The notes under the pieces: generated by a model | Seen by the model: only the letters and a program-made list of their open reading frames with translations | Told to the model about the DNA's origin: nothing | The model's database searches: none | DNA from: Patescibacteria group bacterium | GTDB lineage: Bacteria; Patescibacteriota; Patescibacteriia; Patescibacteriales; WJLG01 | Reading direction: 5' to 3' | Assembly (NCBI GenBank): GCA_041652555.1 | Contig: JBAZHE010000001.1 | Span: 2,847 to 66,846 of the forward strand | DNA: 64,000 nt | Shown here: one piece after another, positions 4,649-60,935 of the stretch | Numbering within the stretch: position 1 is the first letter of the stretch | Layout of the letters: the number at the start of each line of letters is the position of its first letter | Made by a program: the position numbers and the translations under genes

Positions 4649-4664
4649 AAAATATAAATTGCTG

Positions 4665-4738
4665 TGCGTCCAGATGGACTTGAACCATCGACCCCAGCTT
4701 TATAAGAGCTGTGCTCTGACCAACTGAGCTATGGACGC
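4665..4738 (-). tRNA. tRNA-Ile (anticodon UAU)
   Basis: The reverse complement GCGTCCATAGCTCAGTTGGTCAGAGCACAGCTCTTATAAAGCTGGGGTCGATGGTTCAAGTCCATCTGGACGCA folds as a cloverleaf. Acceptor GCGTCCA/TGGACGC, anticodon stem CAGCT/AGCTG, loop CTTATAA giving anticodon TAT, T-arm GATGG-TTCAAGT-CCATC. CCA is not encoded. Confidence 0.88.
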
Positions 4739-10607: not shown

Positions 10608-10640
10608 AATTAATTTTTAGAATAACTATTTACACCCAAA

Positions 10641-10690
10641 AACACACCCCGTCGCGGATTACCGCGCCACCCCTCTTGCTAGAGGGGATT
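10641..10690 (-). repeat. GC-rich double-hairpin repeat, copy A (inverted orientation)
   Basis: Reverse complement: AATCCCCTCTAGCAAGAGGGGTGGCGCGGTAATCCGCGACGGGGTGTGTT. Confidence 0.85.
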
Positions 10691-10703
10691 AAAAGTTAAT
10701 TAT

Positions 10704-11732
10704 ATGAAAGAAAAATTGGAAAATTTAAAAAAAGAAATTTTGGAACAGCTTGGTAAAATAGCTGACGGCCAAGCTTTGCAAGATTTTGAAAATAAATACC
10801 TTTCCCGAAAAGGTGAAATTTCTAGTATCTTGCGTGGCCTTAAAGACTTAGGCGACAAAGAAAAAAAGGAAATCGGTGAATTAGCCAACAGCATAAAAAC
10901 TGATGTTTATTCAGAGTTTGAAAAAATCAAAACAACCATTTCTGGACAAAAAACAGCCGACGCCTCCCTAGACGTCACCCTGCCTGGCAAAAAAATCCCA
11001 GCCGGTCATATGCACCCTCTCTCACAAGTGCAATACGAACTAGAAGACCTTTTTACTTCTATGGGTTTTATGGTTTTGGATGGACCAGAGTTAGAAAGTG
11101 ATTATTATAATTTTGAAGCTTTAAATATTCCCAAAACTCACCCCGCTCGCGACATGCAAGACACTTTTTATATTGATAAAAAGAATGACGATGGCGAATA
11201 TGATTTATTAATGAGAACTCATACTTCCCCGGTCCAAATTCGCGCGATGCAAAAATACGGTGCGCCTCTTAAAGCGATTATTCCCGGACGTTGTTTTCGC
11301 TCGGAAGCGACTGATGCCCGCCATGAACACACGCTATATCAGATGGAAGGAATTTTGATTGATAAAGATATTAATTTTTCTCACCTTAAAGGAGTTTTAG
11401 AATTAGTTGGAAAAAAATTATTCGGCCCAGAAACCAAATTGCGGATGCGCCCAAAATTCTATCCATTTGTTGAGCCAGGCACAAACGGCGAATATACTTG
11501 TTCATTATGTGGCGGCAAAGGTTGCCGAGTCTGCAAAAATTCCGGCTGGCTAGAAGTAATCGGCGCCGGCCTAATCCACCCCGAAGTCCTACGTGCTGGT
11601 GGCCTTGATCCAGAAATCTACTCCGGCTTCGCCTTCGGTTTCGGCCTATCTCGCCTAGCCCAATTAAAATACGGAATCGACGACGCCCGTTTGGCTTTAA
11701 GCGGAGACATTCGTTTCCTTTCTCAATTTTAA
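10704..11732 (+). CDS. pheS: phenylalanine--tRNA ligase alpha subunit
   Basis: Class II core with HPARDMQDTFY, RTHTSPVQIR and FRSEATDARHEHTLYQMEG. Confidence 0.95.
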   Translation: MKEKLENLKKEILEQLGKIADGQALQDFENKYLSRKGEISSILRGLKDLGDKEKKEIGELANSIKTDVYSEFEKIKTTISGQKTADASLDVTLPGKKIPAGHMHPLSQVQYELEDLFTSMGFMVLDGPELESDYYNFEALNIPKTHPARDMQDTFYIDKKNDDGEYDLLMRTHTSPVQIRAMQKYGAPLKAIIPGRCFRSEATDARHEHTLYQMEGILIDKDINFSHLKGVLELVGKKLFGPETKLRMRPKFYPFVEPGTNGEYTCSLCGGKGCRVCKNSGWLEVIGAGLIHPEVLRAGGLDPEIYSGFAFGFGLSRLAQLKYGIDDARLALSGDIRFLSQF

Positions 11733-14977: not shown

Positions 14978-15553
14978 ATGTTGAACAGAAAATTTATAAG
15001 CAAACTAAGAGACGATTACCAAAAATCACAATCAGAAAGACGACAAATAATTTCTATCTCCAGTGGCATACTAAGTGATTCCAAAAAAACCATTTTTGCC
15101 TTGCATCGTGGAGAAATAAAAACCGCCGAAGAAAATTTTGCTGCCATTGAAGAATCTTTGAAAAAAATGGAAAAAAGCTTTGGCTTTAATAGAAACGAAG
15201 ATGAAGGTTCATACAAAGCCGCCGTAGAAGAATATGTAGAAGCAAAAATGTTTTATTATTTCTTGGCCGGAAAAAAAATAGACAAAATCCCTGAAGTAAA
15301 ACTAGATTTTGATAGCTATGTTGGCGGTATCTGTGACTTCACTGGCGAAATGGTTCGCTACGCCACCAATCAATCGGCTGCTGGAAACTTTAAAAAAGCC
15401 GCTGAAGTAAAAGAAGTAATAAACTTAGTCATCGGAGAATTAATTGATTTCGACCTCGGAGGATATTTGCGCACCAAATACGACCAATGCCGATCTAACC
15501 TAAGAAAAATAGAAGAAATGGCTTATGAGATAAAATTAAAAACCGGAAAATAA
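14978..15553 (+). CDS. translin/TRAX (C3PO-like) family protein
   Basis: EEYVEAKMFYYF aligns with human TRAX QEYVEAVSFQHF. DSYVGGICDFTGEMVRYATNQSAAGN aligns with TRAX [26 protein letters not shown]. The C-terminal LRTKYDQ...LRKIEEMAYEIKLK aligns with translin LRKRYD...VKKVEEVVYDLSIR. Confidence 0.8.
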   Translation: MLNRKFISKLRDDYQKSQSERRQIISISSGILSDSKKTIFALHRGEIKTAEENFAAIEESLKKMEKSFGFNRNEDEGSYKAAVEEYVEAKMFYYFLAGKKIDKIPEVKLDFDSYVGGICDFTGEMVRYATNQSAAGNFKKAAEVKEVINLVIGELIDFDLGGYLRTKYDQCRSNLRKIEEMAYEIKLKTGK

Positions 15554-16105: not shown

Positions 16106-16315
16106 ATGGAAGAGCAACAATTTCAAGCTCAGCCGGAAGTAAAGCCGAAATCCGGTTTAGCCAAAGTCATTATTATTAACGTGATAATCACCTTAATAAT
16201 TTCGGCCGTGATGAGTTTTATAATCTCCTCTATGGTTTTCAGTCAGAAGTTTTCTGATTTAGAAACATTACAAAAAAAGCTAGACGCTTTTTCAAATAAA
16301 ATAAAAATAAATTAA
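16106..16315 (+). CDS. small single-TM protein (69 aa)
   Basis: ATG-initiated ORF with one hydrophobic helix. Confidence 0.5.
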
Positions 16316-16386
16316 TCCCCTCTAGAAAGAGGGGTGGCTGGACCCAACGGGTCGCCTTTGGCGTACTCCGAGACGGAGTGTGTTTT
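16314..16386 (+). repeat. GC-rich double-hairpin repeat, copy B (expanded)
   Basis: AATCCCCTCTAGAAAGAGGGGTGGC[TGGACCCAACGGGTCGCCTTTGGC]GTACTCCGAGACGGAGTGTGTT. It starts inside the TAA stop of the upstream gene and ends 4 nt before the uvrB ATG. Confidence 0.85.
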
Positions 16387-46717: not shown

Positions 46718-46721
46718 TATT

Positions 46722-46812
46722 AATCCCCTCTAGAAATCTGTCTGTCCGGTAGGCAGGGAGGGGTGGTTCGGTACTCCGATTTATCCCGTTCGCTGGAGAC
46801 GGGGTGTGTTGT
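46722..46812 (+). repeat. GC-rich double-hairpin repeat, copy C (both loops expanded)
   Basis: AATCCCCTCTAGAAATCTGTCTGTCCGGTAGGCAGGGAGGGGTGGTTCGGTACTCCGATTTATCCCGTTCGCTGGAGACGGGGTGTGTTGTG. Confidence 0.8.
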
Positions 46813-48488: not shown

Positions 48489-48490
48489 TA

Positions 48491-48540
48491 AATCCCCTCT
48501 AGAAAGAGGGGTGGCTCGGTACTCCGAGACGGGGTGTGTG
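48491..48540 (+). repeat. GC-rich double-hairpin repeat, copy D (canonical)
   Basis: AATCCCCTCTAGAAAGAGGGGTGGCTCGGTACTCCGAGACGGGGTGTGTG. Hairpin 1 is CCCCTCT/AGAGGGG and hairpin 2 is CTCGG-TACT-CCGAG. Confidence 0.9.
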
Positions 48541-48570
48541 AAATTTAACACCTTTGCTATATATTCAGCG

Positions 48571-55210: not shown

Positions 55211-55233
55211 ATCCGACTTAATTAAGTCGGATT
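55208..55233. terminator. bidirectional terminator hairpin between convergent genes
   Basis: AAATCCGACTT-AATT-AAGTCGGATTT flanked by an A-run and a T-run. Confidence 0.7.
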
Positions 55234-56666
55234 TATTTTTGAAAAGTTTTTTTATCGCGTCGTTGTTTGTGAAAGGTTATGGCAAAACGATGCGCCTCGT
55301 CTCGAACACGCTTAATAATATGTAGAGCAGGGGAGGCCAGAGGGAGAACAAGAGGTTTTTTTATTTTTGGAAAGAAAATTCTGTCTGGCGCTTTAGCTGA
55401 GCGCAAGCCGTCACCCTTAGAAACCCCAAGTATTGGAATATCAAGCTTGAATTTCTTTAAAATAGCCAGTCCGGCATTAAGCTGCCCTTTTCCGCCGTCA
55501 ATAATTATTAAGTCAGGCAATGGCCAATTATTATTAAATCTTCTCTCTAAAATTTCTTTTAACATTCCCGTGTCATCACCTTTAGAAATTGATAATTGAT
55601 CATTGATAATTGAAGATTTAATCTTGAATTTCCGATATTGGCTTTTATCCGGTTCGCCGTTTTTAAAAACTACCATTGATCCAACAGCTTCTTGGCCAAA
55701 TAAATTAGAAATATCATAGCCTTCTATTCTTTGTGGAATTTTTGGTAGAGCAAGAATTTTTGCTAATTCCACCACGTCGGCGGCGTATTTTTCATGAACA
55801 CTTAAAACGTTAGAATGCGCTAAAACATTCCGCATCTGCAAAAGACGATATTTCAATTGCCGAATTTTTTCAGATATTAATTCCCCTCTTGAGAGGGGTG
55901 GCCCGTACTCGGGACGGGGTGTGTGAGGCTTGGTATCGGTTAAAAGTTTTTTTTGAAGATTGATAATTGAAGATTGAAAATTTTTCTCTATATCTTTCCG
56001 TCGTCCTTCCAAGAAGGCAATAATTTCTTTAATAATTTTTTTGTATTCAATAATGTCTGTTGGTGCGCCGTAGATTTCTGGATAACGGCGATTTTTTATT
56101 TGGCTATTTTTATTATCAGGCATTGTAGCAAATCTTCCGTAAGGAAAAATCTTGGCAATTGCTTTAATTGTTTCTCTGACTGCTCCACCAGAAGTAAACG
56201 GCCCGAAGTATCTTCCTGAGGAAATATTCCCCTCTTGAGAGGGGTGGCCCGTACTCGGGACGGGGTGTGTAAGGCCGTTAGGGGGAATTGTTTTTTTAAG
56301 ATTAACCCCAATTGTTCTAGTAGTTAAAATTTTTGGCCATTCGTCATTAGTAATTTTTATATAAAGATGTCGCTTGTCGTCGCGCATTATTATATTGTAA
56401 TCTGGTTGATATTTTTTTATTAAATTTGCTTCCAATAAAAGCGCTTCAATTTCCGAACCAACTTCTATCCATTTTATTTTAGCGATTTTTGTAAGCATGG
56501 ATTGCTTGGCTCCGCTTAATTCTGCGCTTTTACTCCAATACGAAAGCACCCGCGATTTAAGATTCGCGGCTTTGCCGACATAAATAATTTTGCCAGCTTT
56601 ATCATAATACTGATAAGACCCTGGCGTTGTCGGAAGATTAAGTTTCTTGACTTGTTCTAAATTCAT
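55233..56666 (-). CDS. uvrC: excinuclease ABC subunit C (short form lacking the C-terminal HhH domain)
   Basis: GIY-YIG N-terminus (PGSYQYYDKAGKIIYVGKAANLKSR), YFGPF and an RNase-H-like endonuclease region ending in VRDEAHRFAI. GGGGG lies 8 nt upstream of ATG 56666. Confidence 0.9.
   Translation of the reverse strand: MNLEQVKKLNLPTTPGSYQYYDKAGKIIYVGKAANLKSRVLSYWSKSAELSGAKQSMLTKIAKIKWIEVGSEIEALLLEANLIKKYQPDYNIIMRDDKRHLYIKITNDEWPKILTTRTIGVNLKKTIPPNGLTHPVPSTGHPSQEGNISSGRYFGPFTSGGAVRETIKAIAKIFPYGRFATMPDNKNSQIKNRRYPEIYGAPTDIIEYKKIIKEIIAFLEGRRKDIEKNFQSSIINLQKKLLTDTKPHTPRPEYGPPLSRGELISEKIRQLKYRLLQMRNVLAHSNVLSVHEKYAADVVELAKILALPKIPQRIEGYDISNLFGQEAVGSMVVFKNGEPDKSQYRKFKIKSSIINDQLSISKGDDTGMLKEILERRFNNNWPLPDLIIIDGGKGQLNAGLAILKKFKLDIPILGVSKGDGLRSAKAPDRIFFPKIKKPLVLPLASPALHIIKRVRDEAHRFAITFHKQRRDKKTFQK
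55880..55928 (+). repeat. GC-rich double-hairpin repeat, copy E (inside uvrC)
   Basis: ATTCCCCTCTTGAGAGGGGTGGCCCGTACTCGGGACGGGGTGTGTGAGG, translated on the minus strand as KPHTPRPEYGPPLSRGE. Confidence 0.9.
56226..56274 (+). repeat. GC-rich double-hairpin repeat, copy F (inside uvrC)
   Basis: ATTCCCCTCTTGAGAGGGGTGGCCCGTACTCGGGACGGGGTGTGTAAGG, identical to copy E over 45 nt. Translated on the minus strand as GLTHPVPSTGHPSQEGN. Confidence 0.9.
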
Positions 56667-56739
56667 ATTATTCCCCCTTCTTTGCAAGAAAAAATTAGTA
56701 GTGGTTAGATATTTAAAGTTTAGGCGTTATTATCTAAAA

Positions 56740-56808: not shown

Positions 56809-57633
<825 letters not shown>

Positions 57634-57778: not shown

Positions 57779-57873
57779 ACGTAGCGTAGCGTAGGGAGAA
57801 ATCTCTTGAAGTCTGTTGCTCACTTAAAGTTTAAGCGATTTCTCGCTTCGCTCGAAATGACGAGAAAATATGG
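57779..57873. repeat. second repeat family: imperfect inverted repeat with ~25-35 nt arms around a ~30-nt spacer
   Basis: Left arm TGTCATTTCGAACGTAGCGTAGCGTAGGGAGAAATC. Right arm GATTTCTCGCTTCGCTCGAAATGACGAG. It ends at the helicase start codon (57870). Confidence 0.7.
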
Positions 57874-60800
57874 AAAATAAAAAAACTCAATTAAATAAAG
57901 AACAAGAAGCGGCTGTTTTACATGGTCAGGGGCCACTTTTGATTGTGGCTGGGGCTGGAACCGGTAAAACTTGCGTTATTACTGAGCGCATTGTTAATTT
58001 GATTAATTCGGGGCTGGCGCAGTCTAGTGAAATATTGGCTTTAACTTTTACAGAAAAAGCTGCTGGGGAGATGGTGGAGCGCGTGGATAGACTTTTGCCT
58101 TTGGGTTATTATGATTTGAATATTTCCACTTTTCATTCTTTTTGTCAGGAAGTTTTGAATGATTCAGGTCTAGATATTGGTTTGCCGACAAATTTTAAAT
58201 TGTTAAATGAATTTGAACAGTATAGTTTATTTAAAAAACATTTAGACAGGTTTGGTTTGATTTACTATCAGCCAATGGGCAATCCGACCAAGTTTATCAG
58301 AGAAATTTTGAAGCATATTTCGCGTTGTAAAGATGAGGATATTACCCCTTTAGAATATTTGTGTTATGCCGAAGAATTACGACAGGACTTAGACGGAATG
58401 TTGGGTGCGGTGAAAGGTTCCAAGAAGGGGAAGAGTAATAATGTTTTTCTGAATTCCAAGGGAGAGTTTGATAGAGAGGTTGCTGAGCAAGAAGTTAAAA
58501 AAATTGAAGAGGTTGCAAACGCCTATCATATTTATCAGAATTTGCTCCTGGAAAATAATGCTTTGGATTTTGGTGATTTGATAAATTATTGTTTAAAACT
58601 TTTTCGTGAACGGCCAAATGTTTTGGAAAAATATCGCGCTCGTTTTAAATATATTCTTGTTGATGAATTTCAAGATACTAATTGGGCGCAATATGAATTA
58701 GTAAAAATGTTAGCCGCACCACAAAATAATATCACCGTCGTAGGAGACGACGACCAGAGTGTTTACAGATTTAGAGGAGCGGCGATGGCTAATATTTTAG
58801 AATTTAAAAAAGATTATCCTGATTGTCAGCAAGTTTTTTTGCGAGAAAATTATCGCAGTGCACAAGAAATTCTTAATTCTTCTTATGAATTTATTAAATT
58901 AAATAATCCTAATCGTTTAGAAGCGCAATTAGCCTCTGACGGCTCCGGGCTTTCAAAGAAATTAAAATCAAATATTTCCGATAAAGGCTTAATAGAAGTA
59001 ATTCGCGGAGCTGATATTGTTGATGAATTAGCGCGTGTAGTAAAAAAGATTGCTGATATCAAGACCGAAGACAAAGAAGCTAAATGGAGCGACTTTGCAA
59101 TCTTGGCTCGCGCCAATGACCCGGCTAAAGAAATTTGTTCTTATTTGGATGAAGCTGGTTTCCCTTATAAATTAAATTCTTCCCGCGGACTTTATGCTAA
59201 GGAGGAGATTTTAAATTCTATTGCCTACTTAACTGCTCTGTCTGATTATTACGATGGCGTGGCGCTTTACAAGAGTTTATCTTTGCCGGTTTTTGGTTTG
59301 ACAGTTGAGAATTTAACTACGCTTAATTATTTAGTTTACAAAAAAGGTTCCTCTCTTTATAAAATATTAAACGAAGCGGCGGCGATGGGGGTTGGCAGTG
59401 TTTGCTTGACTAAGGTTAATAAATTTTTAGCAGTTTTTAAAAAGCATTTGACTGAATTGCGTGAAAAAAGTGCAGGAGAAATGTTTTTGTCTTTTTTAAA
59501 TGATTCTGGTTATTTGAAATATCTTACTTCTTTGGGTGGCAGAAGAGAAGTAGAGGCGTCTAATCTTTTGAATCAGTTTATGCGCCGGATAAAAAGCTTT
59601 GAAGCTAATTCTGGCGACAAAAGTGTCCGGGCTTTTTTGAATGAGCTTTTAGTGGAGATTGAAGCTGGCGAACAAGGAACACTGCCTTTTGACGAGGGCG
59701 ATAGTCCTGATACCATAAAAATAATGACAGTTCATGCTTCTAAGGGTTTGGAATTTAAATATGTTTTTATTATAAATTTAATAGACAAGCGTTTTCCGTC
59801 TATTGAACGTAGTGAGTCAATAAAAATACCAGATGCGCTTTTGGATGAAAAATTACCAGAAGGGGATCATCATTTAGAAGAAGAACGCCGGCTTTTTTAT
59901 GTAGCAATGACCCGCGCAAAAAAAGGCTTGTATCTCTCTTGGTCATCGGATGCTGGCGGTAAACGTGAACGCCGAGCTTCTAGGTTTTTAGTAGAAACAG
60001 GATTAGTAGAAGATTTAACTTTAGAAAATTCTGAAGATGATAAAATAACTCCCCTCTTGGGAGGGGTGCCCGAAGGGCGGGGAGGGTTGCTCGAAGTGAA
60101 GCCTGTTGTTGAAGAAAAAAATAAAGAAGAAAAATTTATTCCAAAAGCTCCAGAAAGATTTTCTTATTCTCAATTTGCTGCTTACGAAAAATGTCCTTAT
60201 CAATATCGTTTTGCCAATGTTTTAAAAATTCCTGTCCACGGCAAACCATCTTTTTCTTTTGGAAAAACCATGCACGCTACTTTTCAAAAGATTCTTCAAA
60301 TAGTCCAACAAGCCGGAGAAAAAACCCAAGATAGCTTATTTAATGACCCTGCCGTAGGAACAGGGCACTGCCCTGTTCTGTCTTTAGAAGAGTGCTACAA
60401 AGTCTATGCCGAATCTTGGGAGGACGATTGGTATCCGTCAGAAAAATTAAAAGAAGAATATCGCGCCAACGGCAAAAGAATCGTCAAAGAATTTTACGAA
60501 GAACACAAAGACAACTGGCCAAAAGTTTTATTTTTGGAAAAAGGTTTTTCTCTACGAATGAAAGTTGATGGCGAAGGAATAACAATCGCCGGAAAAATTG
60601 ACCGTATTGACGAAACACCAGACGGAAAATTAAGAATTATTGATTACAAAACCGGCAGTCCAAAAGAAAAATTAACCTTTGAAGACAAAGCTCAGTTATT
60701 AATTTATCAAACAGCAGCTAAGCAATTTTTTCACCAAGAAGTTGGCGCCTTAGTTTTTCGCTACCTAGAAGACGGAAGCGAAATAGAATTCCTTGGCAAA

Positions 60801-60935
60801 GATAAAGACTTTGAAAAATTAGACGAAAAAATCTGCGAAGCAGTCCGTGCTATCCGCTCGGGTGAATTCCCACCCAAGCCGGTTATGTGCAAGTATTGCG
60901 ACTTTAACGGAATTTGTGAATACCGAAAACTTTAA
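57870..60935 (+). CDS. UvrD/PcrA-like helicase fused to a C-terminal PD-(D/E)XK (Cas4/AddB-type, Cys-cluster) nuclease
   Basis: Walker A AGAGTGKT, VDEFQDTN, VGDDDQSVYRFRGA and MTVHASKGLEF. C-terminal KCPYQYRF...GKIDRIDETPDGKLRIIDYKTG...CKYCDFNGIC. Confidence 0.88.
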   Translation: MENKKTQLNKEQEAAVLHGQGPLLIVAGAGTGKTCVITERIVNLINSGLAQSSEILALTFTEKAAGEMVERVDRLLPLGYYDLNISTFHSFCQEVLNDSGLDIGLPTNFKLLNEFEQYSLFKKHLDRFGLIYYQPMGNPTKFIREILKHISRCKDEDITPLEYLCYAEELRQDLDGMLGAVKGSKKGKSNNVFLNSKGEFDREVAEQEVKKIEEVANAYHIYQNLLLENNALDFGDLINYCLKLFRERPNVLEKYRARFKYILVDEFQDTNWAQYELVKMLAAPQNNITVVGDDDQSVYRFRGAAMANILEFKKDYPDCQQVFLRENYRSAQEILNSSYEFIKLNNPNRLEAQLASDGSGLSKKLKSNISDKGLIEVIRGADIVDELARVVKKIADIKTEDKEAKWSDFAILARANDPAKEICSYLDEAGFPYKLNSSRGLYAKEEILNSIAYLTALSDYYDGVALYKSLSLPVFGLTVENLTTLNYLVYKKGSSLYKILNEAAAMGVGSVCLTKVNKFLAVFKKHLTELREKSAGEMFLSFLNDSGYLKYLTSLGGRREVEASNLLNQFMRRIKSFEANSGDKSVRAFLNELLVEIEAGEQGTLPFDEGDSPDTIKIMTVHASKGLEFKYVFIINLIDKRFPSIERSESIKIPDALLDEKLPEGDHHLEEERRLFYVAMTRAKKGLYLSWSSDAGGKRERRASRFLVETGLVEDLTLENSEDDKITPLLGGVPEGRGGLLEVKPVVEEKNKEEKFIPKAPERFSYSQFAAYEKCPYQYRFANVLKIPVHGKPSFSFGKTMHATFQKILQIVQQAGEKTQDSLFNDPAVGTGHCPVLSLEECYKVYAESWEDDWYPSEKLKEEYRANGKRIVKEFYEEHKDNWPKVLFLEKGFSLRMKVDGEGITIAGKIDRIDETPDGKLRIIDYKTGSPKEKLTFEDKAQLLIYQTAAKQFFHQEVGALVFRYLEDGSEIEFLGKDKDFEKLDEKICEAVRAIRSGEFPPKPVMCKYCDFNGICEYRKL
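60048..60096 (+). repeat. GC-rich double-hairpin repeat, copy G (divergent, inside helicase gene)
   Basis: ACTCCCCTCTTGGGAGGGGTGCCCGAAGGGCGGGGAGGGTTGCTCGAAG, translated as TPLLGGVPEGRGGLLE. Confidence 0.7.

Follow-up and report, generated by a model that had tools for sequence, protein, structure and literature searches.

Rickettsia palindromic elements (RPEs; Ogata et al. 2000, 2002) are about 100-150 bp long in the RPE-1 type and carry a recognisable peptide, according to the summaries in PMC10969869 and PMC3733652. Repetitive extragenic palindromic (REP) sequences are single hairpins of 20-40 bp, those of the CGTC type having a CCA tail and a loop of 4-5 nt on a stem of 8-9 bp whose first two pairs are A-T (PMC3733652). 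In-frame RPEs and GTAG/CGTC REPs occur in uvrABC, uvrD/rep and recBCD (PMC10969869, PMC3733652). Intragenic GTAG/CGTC REPs concentrate in these genes and in those for polymerases and tRNA modification, and orthologous recB genes can contain different REPs at roughly the same position (PMC3733652). Palindromic selfish DNA that lies in frame in repair genes is a known phenomenon. The present analysis concerns a GC-rich repeat of two small hairpins at 60047-60090 (+) of a 64,000-nucleotide stretch of a Patescibacteria genome (hereafter, the window), where it is read in frame within a gene for a UvrD-like helicase-nuclease. The repeat was found to belong to a family shared by Patescibacteria and phage contigs, and it is probably a non-autonomous selfish mobile element, REP- or RPE-like in kind, which is tolerated in a permissive linker of the enzyme. 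No description of the two-module element, of its presence in Patescibacteria, or of the fact that diverse phages share it was apparent in the sources searched; the searchable literature, queried with sequence strings and with candidate phyla radiation (CPR) combined with REP or MITE (miniature inverted-repeat transposable element), yielded nothing relevant on the element.

The host gene (57870-60935, +) encodes a 1021-aa protein, a UvrD/PcrA-type helicase with a C-terminal Cas4/AddB-like PD-(D/E)XK nuclease. Pfam domains were located at residues 8-317 (UvrD-helicase), 324-693 (UvrD_C) and 763-1017 (PDDEXK_1), and Cys775, Cys1007, Cys1010 and Cys1016 were invariant among 45 orthologues; judged from sequence, this indicates a PcrA/UvrD-type motor joined to a Cas4/AddB-like Fe-S nuclease. 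The closest relatives in the Protein Data Bank were PcrA, UvrD, AdnB and AddA, and homology to them is over by about residue 719. An AlphaFold2 model based on the 45-sequence alignment had a mean predicted local distance difference test score (pLDDT) of 78.8, whereas residues 731-755 scored below 50, with 10-residue blocks at 32, and residues 710-762 were devoid of secondary structure. The most variable part of the protein in the 45-orthologue alignment lies between the motifs ..SRFLVE and ..FSYSQ. An earlier, sequence-only reading of this DNA had assigned the repeat to the linker between the helicase core and the nuclease, a position thought likely to tolerate insertions. The end of UvrD_C at residue 693, the start of PDDEXK_1 at residue 763, and the modelled disorder between them bear out the first point, and the predicted disorder over residues 731-755 is consistent with the second. 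Several orthologues (P0027, P0032, P0046, P0055, P0059, P0065, P0101, P0104) are 1368-1410 aa long and contain intein/Hint domains (PF14890, in most also PF01079); the helicase-nuclease gene is an intein target as well.

The codons ACT CCC CTC TTG GGA GGG GTG CCC GAA GGG CGG GGA GGG TTG CTC GAA at 60048-60095 lie in frame in the open reading frame (ORF) 57870..60935 (+) and specify residues 727-742, TPLLGGVPEGRGGLLE, to which the element itself contributes TPLLGGVPEGRGGL (residues 727-740). The sequence had been quoted exactly, letter for letter; the span assigned to it started correctly and ran one base too far, as position 60096 lies beyond the 16th codon. The covariance-model match (60047-60090, +) comprises 44 GC-rich bases, within which the 37-nt core CCCCTCTTGGGAGGGGTGCCCGAAGGGCGGGGAGGGT occupies 60051-60087 (+). 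Hairpin 1, CCCCTC and GAGGGG closed by a TTGG loop, was placed by folding at 60051-60066 (+; arms 60051-56 and 60061-66). Hairpin 2, GCCC-GAA-GGGC, was placed at 60068-60078 (+; arms 60068-71 and 60075-78) and is conserved in structure only. The G-rich tail GGGGAGGGT follows at 60079-60087 (+), for which the family consensus is GGGG[T/A]G[T/G]GT. Both hairpins, which the copy had been said to keep, are predicted to form on either strand (DNA fold -10.6 kcal/mol, z -2.1). The copy is one of two 45-nt stretches with more than 60% GC in the helicase gene, the window having 32-41% GC. It also forms a G-quadruplex-like motif on the coding strand (60059-60082; defined as four tracts of at least three G, with loops of up to 12 nt), one of two such motifs in the 64 kb.

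Two models assigned the helicase segment to the same repeat family as the other copies of the window, as had been proposed from the sequence. A hidden Markov model (HMM) from 24 other copies picked it out with an E value of 1.3e-5 (nhmmer, 2.5 Mb); the underlying alignment was anchored by hand, since MAFFT mis-registered hairpin 1 in the 24 copies, whose loop lengths differ. A covariance model (R1), trained on 14 copies with 4-nt loops and excluding both the helicase copy and its short-hairpin subtype, scored the segment at 41.0 bits (cmsearch, E 2.9e-11). In addition, CCCCTCNNNNGAGGGG occurred three times in the window at no more than one mismatch, against 0.01 occurrences expected. With its modules in register, AACT-CCCCTC-TTGG-GAGGGG-TG-CCCGAAGGGC-GGGGAGGGT fits the family column by column. 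Ungapped identity to the two copies found in uvrC is only 66%, a figure that would suit a fortuitous resemblance, whether of a run of GC-rich codons arisen by chance or of an ancestral protein motif. The probability of such a coincidence is practically nil, and the idea was refuted by the covariance-model E value, by a compensatory change in hairpin 2, by 34/37 identity to an independent copy, and by the absence of the segment in orthologues.

The segment had also been called divergent, with a different 3′ tail. This description needs correcting: the helicase copy is a clean, undecayed member of a distinct subfamily, defined by a short hairpin 2 (4 bp, GAA triloop) and by a tail of the form GGGG(A/T)GGGT. 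The subfamily is present in related genomes and, at 87-92% identity, in more than 20 contigs of uncultured phages. Closest to the helicase copy are L081_2926 (34/38 identical) and the phage-borne L185_4278 (34/37), and a dozen further phage copies are identical to it at 33-34 of 38 positions, whereas the six other window copies reach only 65-79% identity. Members of the subtype elsewhere include L081_2926 and L081_5040, along with short GAA-triloop copies bearing a GGGGTGTGT tail in L163 and L002, and the tail of the helicase copy recurs in L081_2926, L002_21656 and L002_16434. Hairpin 2 differs between the helicase copy (GCCC-GAA-GGGC) and L081_2926 (GGCC-GAA-GGCC) by a compensatory pair. An identical helicase copy is present in an independent Joint Genome Institute assembly (L165), so that the copy is no assembly artefact.

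The family was characterised from 29 high-confidence copies in seven Patescibacteria genomes. The element is 37-50 nt long, GC-rich, and composed of hairpin 1, hairpin 2, and a G-rich tail; the consensus of the window copies is A-N-T CCCCTC(loop)GAGGGG TGG (hairpin 2) (A)C GGGGTGTGT. Across the 29 copies, pairing holds in 97% of the cells of both helices. The sequence of hairpin 1 is conserved, with pairs invariant in 26-28 of 28 distinct CPR copies, and a scan that left hairpin 1 unspecified recovered the canonical form in 25 of 28 real members and a single mismatch in the other three. Hairpin 2 covaries, with changes on both sides in four of six pairs and a score of 0.145, compared with 0.040 for shuffled alignments (0/500 reached 0.145) and at most 0.037 for slid partners; it covaries likewise in phage copies. 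The hairpins are under selection, as is evident from the covariation of hairpin 2 in CPR and phage copies and from the conservation of hairpin 1 when it is left unspecified. In the flank, A at -3 and T at -1 were present in 29/29 CPR copies, while only the T at -1 was constant in the phage copies listed. A G-N-A triloop was present in 26 of 33 short copies (P 1e-25). The d(C-GNA-G) sequence is a classic hyper-stable DNA mini-hairpin, and the excess of such triloops favours a structure at the DNA level rather than at the RNA level. Nested and dimeric copies exist. In P0122 (KsgA), a tandem partial duplication of the element was observed, in which NSPLERGGRPLAG occurs twice, and P0123 (DNA polymerase III delta, holA) contains an in-frame inverted pair, KSPLERGGEPGEPGCV ... 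VTHPVRPGAVHPSQEGTL, around a spacer of ~22 aa.

The distribution of the family was examined in a 208-kb set for R1, consisting of the window and nine close relatives, with all compared loci centred on the helicase. Copies were present in the window and in L002, L081, L095, L161, L163 and L164 (29 copies in 154 kb, seven genomes), and zero copies were found by R1 in the close relatives L001, L024 and L082. A sequence-only HMM gave zero copies in about 150 more distant Patescibacteria loci. Long ORFs (helicase, uvrC, queA) enclose 18 of the 29 copies, eight in sense and ten in antisense orientation and in at least four frames; all 18 are in one continuous ORF, with conserved protein on either side. 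A peptide search of 5.8 billion sequences, in which short peptides are unable to reach significance, gave four matches at E ≤10 and added KsgA, DNA polymerase III delta, and another helicase fragment as hosts.

A pattern scan of IMG/VR located the element in 27 loci on viral contigs of 39-67% GC, in which R1 counted 44 copies. The five annotated contigs were those of tailed phages, encoding a Mu-like portal, F protein, terminase, PolA and MuA-like transposase, and further DnaB, a replication initiator, a portal and a head protease. The phage copies are both intergenic, in either orientation, and within ORFs (PolA, a MuA-like gene, a DHH phosphoesterase). Copies of the CPR type are present in L177 and L170/L190, which have 40% GC. 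No real match to the element was found among records of cultured phages. Many phage copies (L167, L169, L171, L174, L178-L180, L184, L186, L191, L192) are bordered by short tandem repeats of 6-8 nt, the unit of which varies by phage (TTCTGCC, CTGACTN, CTAACGT, CCCCTAA, GTTTTCA; upstream, GTCSGAWG). L167 and L178 also contain a second, inverted copy ~30 nt away, forming a tail-to-tail pair.

Conserved nucleotides and a covarying stem are features of functional RNAs, and many copies stand just upstream or downstream of genes. It is, nevertheless, very unlikely that the family is a structured RNA motif that acts in transcripts (as a regulatory hairpin, a processing site, or a ribozyme-like element) and that the coding copies are incidental to it. 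Searches of Rfam 15 gave no family match even at E values up to 10, the window yielding only two tRNAs, and the best sub-threshold scores of 9-16 bits compare with gathering scores of 35-96. The orientation relative to transcription is mixed in the coding copies and in the intergenic regions of phages, a U-tract after the hairpins is absent, the RNA fold in context is insignificant, and G-N-A triloops are typical of DNA rather than RNA hairpins. Sequestration of a Shine-Dalgarno sequence by hairpin 1 (GGAGG/CCUCC) was considered as well and dropped, as the spacing to start codons was inconsistent by eye.

With the GTAG/CGTC REPs, the family shares short, GC-rich, multi-copy stem-loops that are mostly intergenic and recur in repair and RNA-modification genes (PMC3733652). 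The REPs at one site of orthologous recB genes (PMC3733652) are mirrored by a hot spot in the linker of the helicase-nuclease. Around hairpin 2, most copies read CGTC-stem-loop-stem-CCA on the other strand, with GAC before the tail in 17/26 and TGG after hairpin 1 in 22/29; GTAG was not found in the family. Unlike REPs, the element has two different hairpins with stems of 4-7 GC pairs, of which hairpin 1 is invariant, and the short hairpin 2 has a loop of 3 nt. REP families are usually species-specific, whereas the element is shared by CPR bacteria and by phage contigs whose GC content is 39-67%. In the helicase copy, the CGTC/GTAG tag and the CCA tail are absent, the sequence being ..GGGC-GGGG.. 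(CCCC-GCCC on the other strand) with the spacer TGC, and this copy falls outside the GTAG/CGTC REPs on the tag as well as on the single stem-loop.

The likeness to RPEs lies in small palindromes of an AT-rich reduced genome that are translated in frame in unrelated housekeeping genes, placed where the fold tolerates them, present also between genes, and without a transposase of their own. The element differs from RPEs in its size (37-50 nt), in the lack of a family peptide (at least four frames are used), in its hosts (Patescibacteria rather than Rickettsiales), and in its carriage by phages. It is set apart from RPEs on size, peptide and host by description rather than by comparison of sequences. 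Yeast mitochondrial GC clusters and the 'byp' elements are likewise GC-rich mobile hairpins in AT-rich coding DNA, and byps interrupt the reading frame, the ribosome skipping over them. Unlike byps or spliced inserts, all 18 coding copies of the element keep a continuous ORF. MITEs such as Correia/NEMIS, ERIC, RUP and Nezha resemble the element in being non-autonomous, small, multi-copy, and fused in frame to ORFs (PMC10969869). MITEs possess terminal inverted repeats and target-site duplications; the element falls outside them in that its ends, ANT-CCCCTC and GKGT-T, are not mutually inverted and a 39-nt insertion occurred without duplication.

Comparison with orthologues indicated that the helicase segment is an insertion. 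Empty orthologues (P0004-8, P0014, P0017, L001, L082) have the sequence ..ADEKxxEPLEDKNSLLxxKK.. with no palindrome in the DNA. The peptide was not found conserved over DNA devoid of palindromic structure, as the empty orthologues have neither the peptide nor the palindrome. An insertion of ~16 aa had been proposed; the insertion stands, whereas its length does not, the net gain over the empty orthologues being only 5-7 aa. The same linker site, after E-E/D-K-N, is filled by other subfamily members in L081, L161, L163 and L164. In L081 and L164, the linker copy reads IPLLGGVAAPRGRGGL, in L163 it contains a nested 33-nt expansion, and in L161 it is read in another frame (SPLERGGLYSGRGVL) and has another hairpin 2. 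In a neighbour-joining tree, filled and empty helicase genes were interleaved. The linker of the closest relative, L024, gave a weak trace in a 201-nt search (6.7 bits, E 0.033), which is suggestive only and was unused as evidence. The helicase linker is a recurrent hot spot and no one-off.

Other helicase loops of low pLDDT in the AlphaFold2 model (residues 180-189, about 350-360, and 818-834) coincide with sites 1, 2 and 4, which are filled in L081, L163, L164, L095 and L002. Site 1 follows GMLSGxxGKKK, site 2 follows NPNRLEEQLK, and site 4 follows QDSLF. In L081, four copies lie within the helicase gene and a fifth is directly 3′ of its stop codon. Since the loops of low confidence are the insertion sites, the element is found where the fold tolerates its presence. 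Unrelated GC-rich in-frame inserts were also observed at the hot spots, in L164 (uvrC and helicase sites 1 and 4), L082 (site 1) and L161 (site 4), with the peptides ..ASSSRGGTPRND.. and ..CHPE...(R)GAQDDK..., so that several repeat families compete for these permissive sites.

How the linker came to be filled in several genomes can be explained in two ways. Recurrent hits, or conversion from copy to copy, at the linker are given a somewhat better chance here. Alternatively, a single ancient insertion might have been inherited vertically, with later remodelling (frame switches and gene conversion of hairpin 2) and losses, a history that is possible though hardly the expected one. Under the latter, the window copy would be an old resident; the two accounts differ over its history and not over its nature. 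An ancient insertion would explain why the same codon-level site is filled in both deep sub-clades (the window and L161; L081, L163 and L164) and why the window and L081 can be aligned over the downstream flank ..KN.EEKFIP. Against it, every filled genome of clade B has an empty sister (P0014, P0011, P0020), the site holds three subtypes of hairpin 2 and two reading frames, no orthologous linker copy resembles the window copy as closely as phage copies do, and the site 2 copy of L163 is identical to another L163 copy, which points to recent events.

Several patterns support the reading of the element as a non-autonomous selfish mobile element. Copies within a genome are more alike than orthologous ones: L163_11118 in the helicase gene and L163_17367 in queA do not differ at all, and L081_2926 closely resembles L081_5040. 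The linker copy has a patchy distribution among relatives. At site 2 of L163, removal of the 39-nt core leaves GGC GAA AAA TTA TCA, in agreement with the empty alleles (GGT GAT AAA TTA TCT in L002 and L082), as expected for a clean insertion after A-N-T with no target duplication. The core length was a multiple of 3 in 10/17 coding versus 0/7 intergenic copies (Fisher P 0.019, with orthologous copies being non-independent), as would be expected if selection filters coding insertions. Intergenic positions were preferred per base, four of the seven window copies falling in the non-coding 8% of the window (P 0.001), and six of the seven are on the G-rich strand whatever the direction of the gene.

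Coding copies would survive only if the net inserted length is divisible by three and the insert contains no stop and is located in a surface loop or linker, and a stop-free reading is easily obtained from a GC-rich sequence in a genome of 36% GC. Such a filter would account for the four low-confidence helicase loops that are hit repeatedly in relatives. The helicase copy may persist because it is stop-free, in frame overall, and placed in a disordered tether, and it is probably without a dedicated function in the helicase.

Other observations weigh against this interpretation. The window linker is just 5-7 aa longer than empty linkers, which compares with a core of 37 nt that is not a multiple of 3; secondary deletions must, therefore, be assumed, or the copy is old and has been remodelled. 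The boundaries of the helicase copy are blurred and could not be cleanly delimited, and the RNA fold of the copy with its flanks was no stabler than that of shuffled sequence (z 0.27). The absence of a target duplication rests on one filled/empty pair resolved to the base, and the orientation bias is weak, with 39/49 copies co-directional within contigs (P 0.024). Among the ORFs scanned in the window and those sampled in the phages, a transposase for the element was not found, and a search for an autonomous parent, by hairpin 1 alone with a distant tail, turned up only unrelated hairpins. Mobility itself we infer from comparative patterns of sequence and not from polymorphism within a population. 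Finally, the orthologous copies L081_4089 and L164_3341 are identical at 40/43 positions, compared with 62% at third codon positions; only the two truly orthologous pairs were considered, the pooled element identity having been discarded because non-orthologous inserts were aligned in it. Such high conservation can mean DNA-level constraint or host-level function, gene conversion, or recency.

For a selfish element of this kind, a route of movement is suggested by analogy. The IS200/IS605 and REP/RAYT (REP-associated tyrosine transposase) systems employ HUH Y1 transposases that act on hairpins of single-stranded DNA (ssDNA). As in IS200/IS605-type (PATE-like) elements, the element has hairpins rather than terminal inverted repeats; insertion 3′ of a short conserved target, with no duplication in the one pair resolved, would also fit. 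Its presence or absence at the same site is compatible with precise excision, and its modest strand and orientation bias would agree with such a system. In contrast to IS200/IS605 and REP/RAYT systems, neither tnpA nor RAYT nor tnpB was found next to any copy, among the ORFs scanned in the window, or among those sampled in the phages, and the resemblance is a lead rather than a demonstrated membership. The element may move as ssDNA, its hairpins being recognised in trans by an HUH/Y1 enzyme, of either the IS200/IS605 or the RAYT type; such an enzyme would insert it 3′ of A-N-T without target-site duplication and could excise it precisely. Transposition by this route is a plausible proposal that falls somewhat short of an even chance.

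In a more speculative extension, the element would be an ssDNA-hairpin parasite of broad host range that shuttles between tailed phages and Patescibacteria, and the helicase copy would be derived from a phage. Arrival from a phage would then explain why the helicase copy resembles phage copies more closely than it does the other window copies. A conserved enzyme would read the invariant hairpin 1 and the tail, inserting the element at A-N-T without duplication. The same loops of repair, replication and RNA-modification enzymes would be hit again and again, so that phages would keep remodelling CPR linkers. We regard this scenario as rather unlikely in its full form.

The sequence-only reading had stated that three of the seven copies of the window lie in DNA-repair genes, and this was confirmed, with two copies in uvrC, one in the helicase-nuclease, and exactly seven copies returned by R1 at E ≤1e-7. 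All three coding copies of the window are in four repair genes, which make up 12.5% of the coding bases (P about 0.002 for copies placed at random on coding DNA; 0.016 when counted by genes). A fourth copy abuts the likely start of uvrB, a fifth follows holB, and coding hosts elsewhere are queA, ksgA, holA and PolA. The bias echoes the published REP data. Targeting or benefit is inseparable here from tolerance, because the helicase is the centre of all compared loci, informational genes abound in CPR genomes, and all sites hit are predicted loops.

A benefit to the host was speculated upon by Di Nocera et al. for REPs in uvr and rec genes (PMC3733652). Here, a Gly/Pro-rich tether might tune the coupling of helicase and nuclease, or a hairpin or G-quadruplex might modulate the expression of repair genes. 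The concentration of coding copies in genes for nucleic-acid enzymes (3/3 of those in the window in repair genes) would agree with such a role, as would the conservation of orthologous copies above the third-position level, the G-quadruplex-like motif of the helicase copy (one of two in 64 kb), and the published REP parallel (PMC3733652). A benefit is improbable, however, as close orthologues work without the element, the use of at least four frames and both orientations implies that no common peptide is selected, and intergenic positions are strongly preferred per base (P 0.001). The enrichment is, moreover, inseparable from tolerance in informational-gene-rich CPR genomes, where long multidomain enzymes offer more linkers.

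A further candidate was a DNA-uptake-signal-like or other host recognition sequence. The DNA uptake sequences of Neisseria are biased toward genome-maintenance genes and often occur as inverted pairs, and CPR bacteria are thought to scavenge DNA. The repair-gene bias and the inverted-repeat form of the element recall these signals. Its density of about 1 per 9 kb is far under that of uptake signals, its form is that of a 40-nt composite with a variable module, and it is absent from the closest relatives and present in phages of very different GC content. The idea, judged to be of negligible probability, was rejected since CCCCTC and GAGGGG, the half-sites, are scarcely seen other than in the seven composite copies.

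If the element is selfish and mobile, as is favoured here, selfish DNA writes directly into essential proteins of a Patescibacteria lineage, as RPEs do in Rickettsia. Some of the 'lineage-specific insertions' of CPR proteins may stem from such elements, which annotators and structure predictors should recognise. The family also lends support from a distant phylum to the puzzle of palindromic repeats in uvrABC, uvrD/rep/recB-type, and tRNA/rRNA-modification genes (PMC3733652), and many filled and empty alleles would make the repair-gene question testable. The occurrence of the same 38-nt motif, with one invariant hairpin, in diverse uncultured phages points to a conserved mobilising enzyme and a possible phage-host link for CPR bacteria. 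The four hot-spot loops amount to a map of insertion-tolerant sites in the helicase-nuclease.

The remaining copies of the window are as follows. The copy at 10639-10691 is intergenic, upstream of pheS, and the sole one on the minus strand. A copy with nested extra hairpins (16313-16386, +) ends 4 nt before the likely ATG of uvrB (16390; uvrB identified by Pfam), and its tail, GACGGAGTGTGT, is the only Shine-Dalgarno-like GGAG near that ATG. A copy with nested inserts (46721-46812, +) lies between holB (DNA polymerase III delta′) and a BNR-repeat gene. In both of these copies, the nested small hairpins sit inside hairpin 1 or hairpin 2. An intergenic copy matched by R1 at 48490-48542 (+) separates frr (RRF) from an M50 protease gene. 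An additional match at 11133-11187 (-; E 0.03) is doubtful and was left uncounted.

The two remaining copies are antisense within uvrC (55233..56687, minus strand) and in two different frames. The first (55879-55927, +) is read HTPRPEYGPPLSRGEL, and the orthologous site in L095 is filled too. The second (56225-56273, +), read THPVPSTGHPSQEGNI, is part of an 84-nt insert that is absent from all 7 orthologues. The peptide IPLLRGV results from the plus-strand reading of the uvrC copies, as originally noted. The insert of 84 nt (28 aa; 56225-56310) comprises a canonical copy and ~39 additional nt, in which part of the 5′ end recurs in inverted form (AGGGGGAATTGT) and ACAATT is duplicated; the insert resembles a composite or a rearranged double insertion.

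Several neighbouring features were observed in passing. The ORF at 14978-15553 (+), 0.8 kb upstream of the copy at 16313, strongly matches the Translin family (PF01997, E 4.7e-23). Proteins of this family bind ssDNA and RNA; they are mainly eukaryotic and archaeal and unusual in bacteria, and translin binds G-rich and GT-rich single strands. Between uvrC and the helicase gene, the ORF at 56809-57633 (-) consists mostly of (GGC)n / GCC-ACC repeats; its product is glycine-rich and has no Pfam match, and an unannotated ORF of 257-286 aa is found in the same position in L161 and L163. A tRNA-Ile with the anticodon UAU (4664-4738, -) adjoins tRNA-Val(GAC); tRNA-Ile(UAU) is uncommon in bacteria, where AUA is usually decoded via lysidine.

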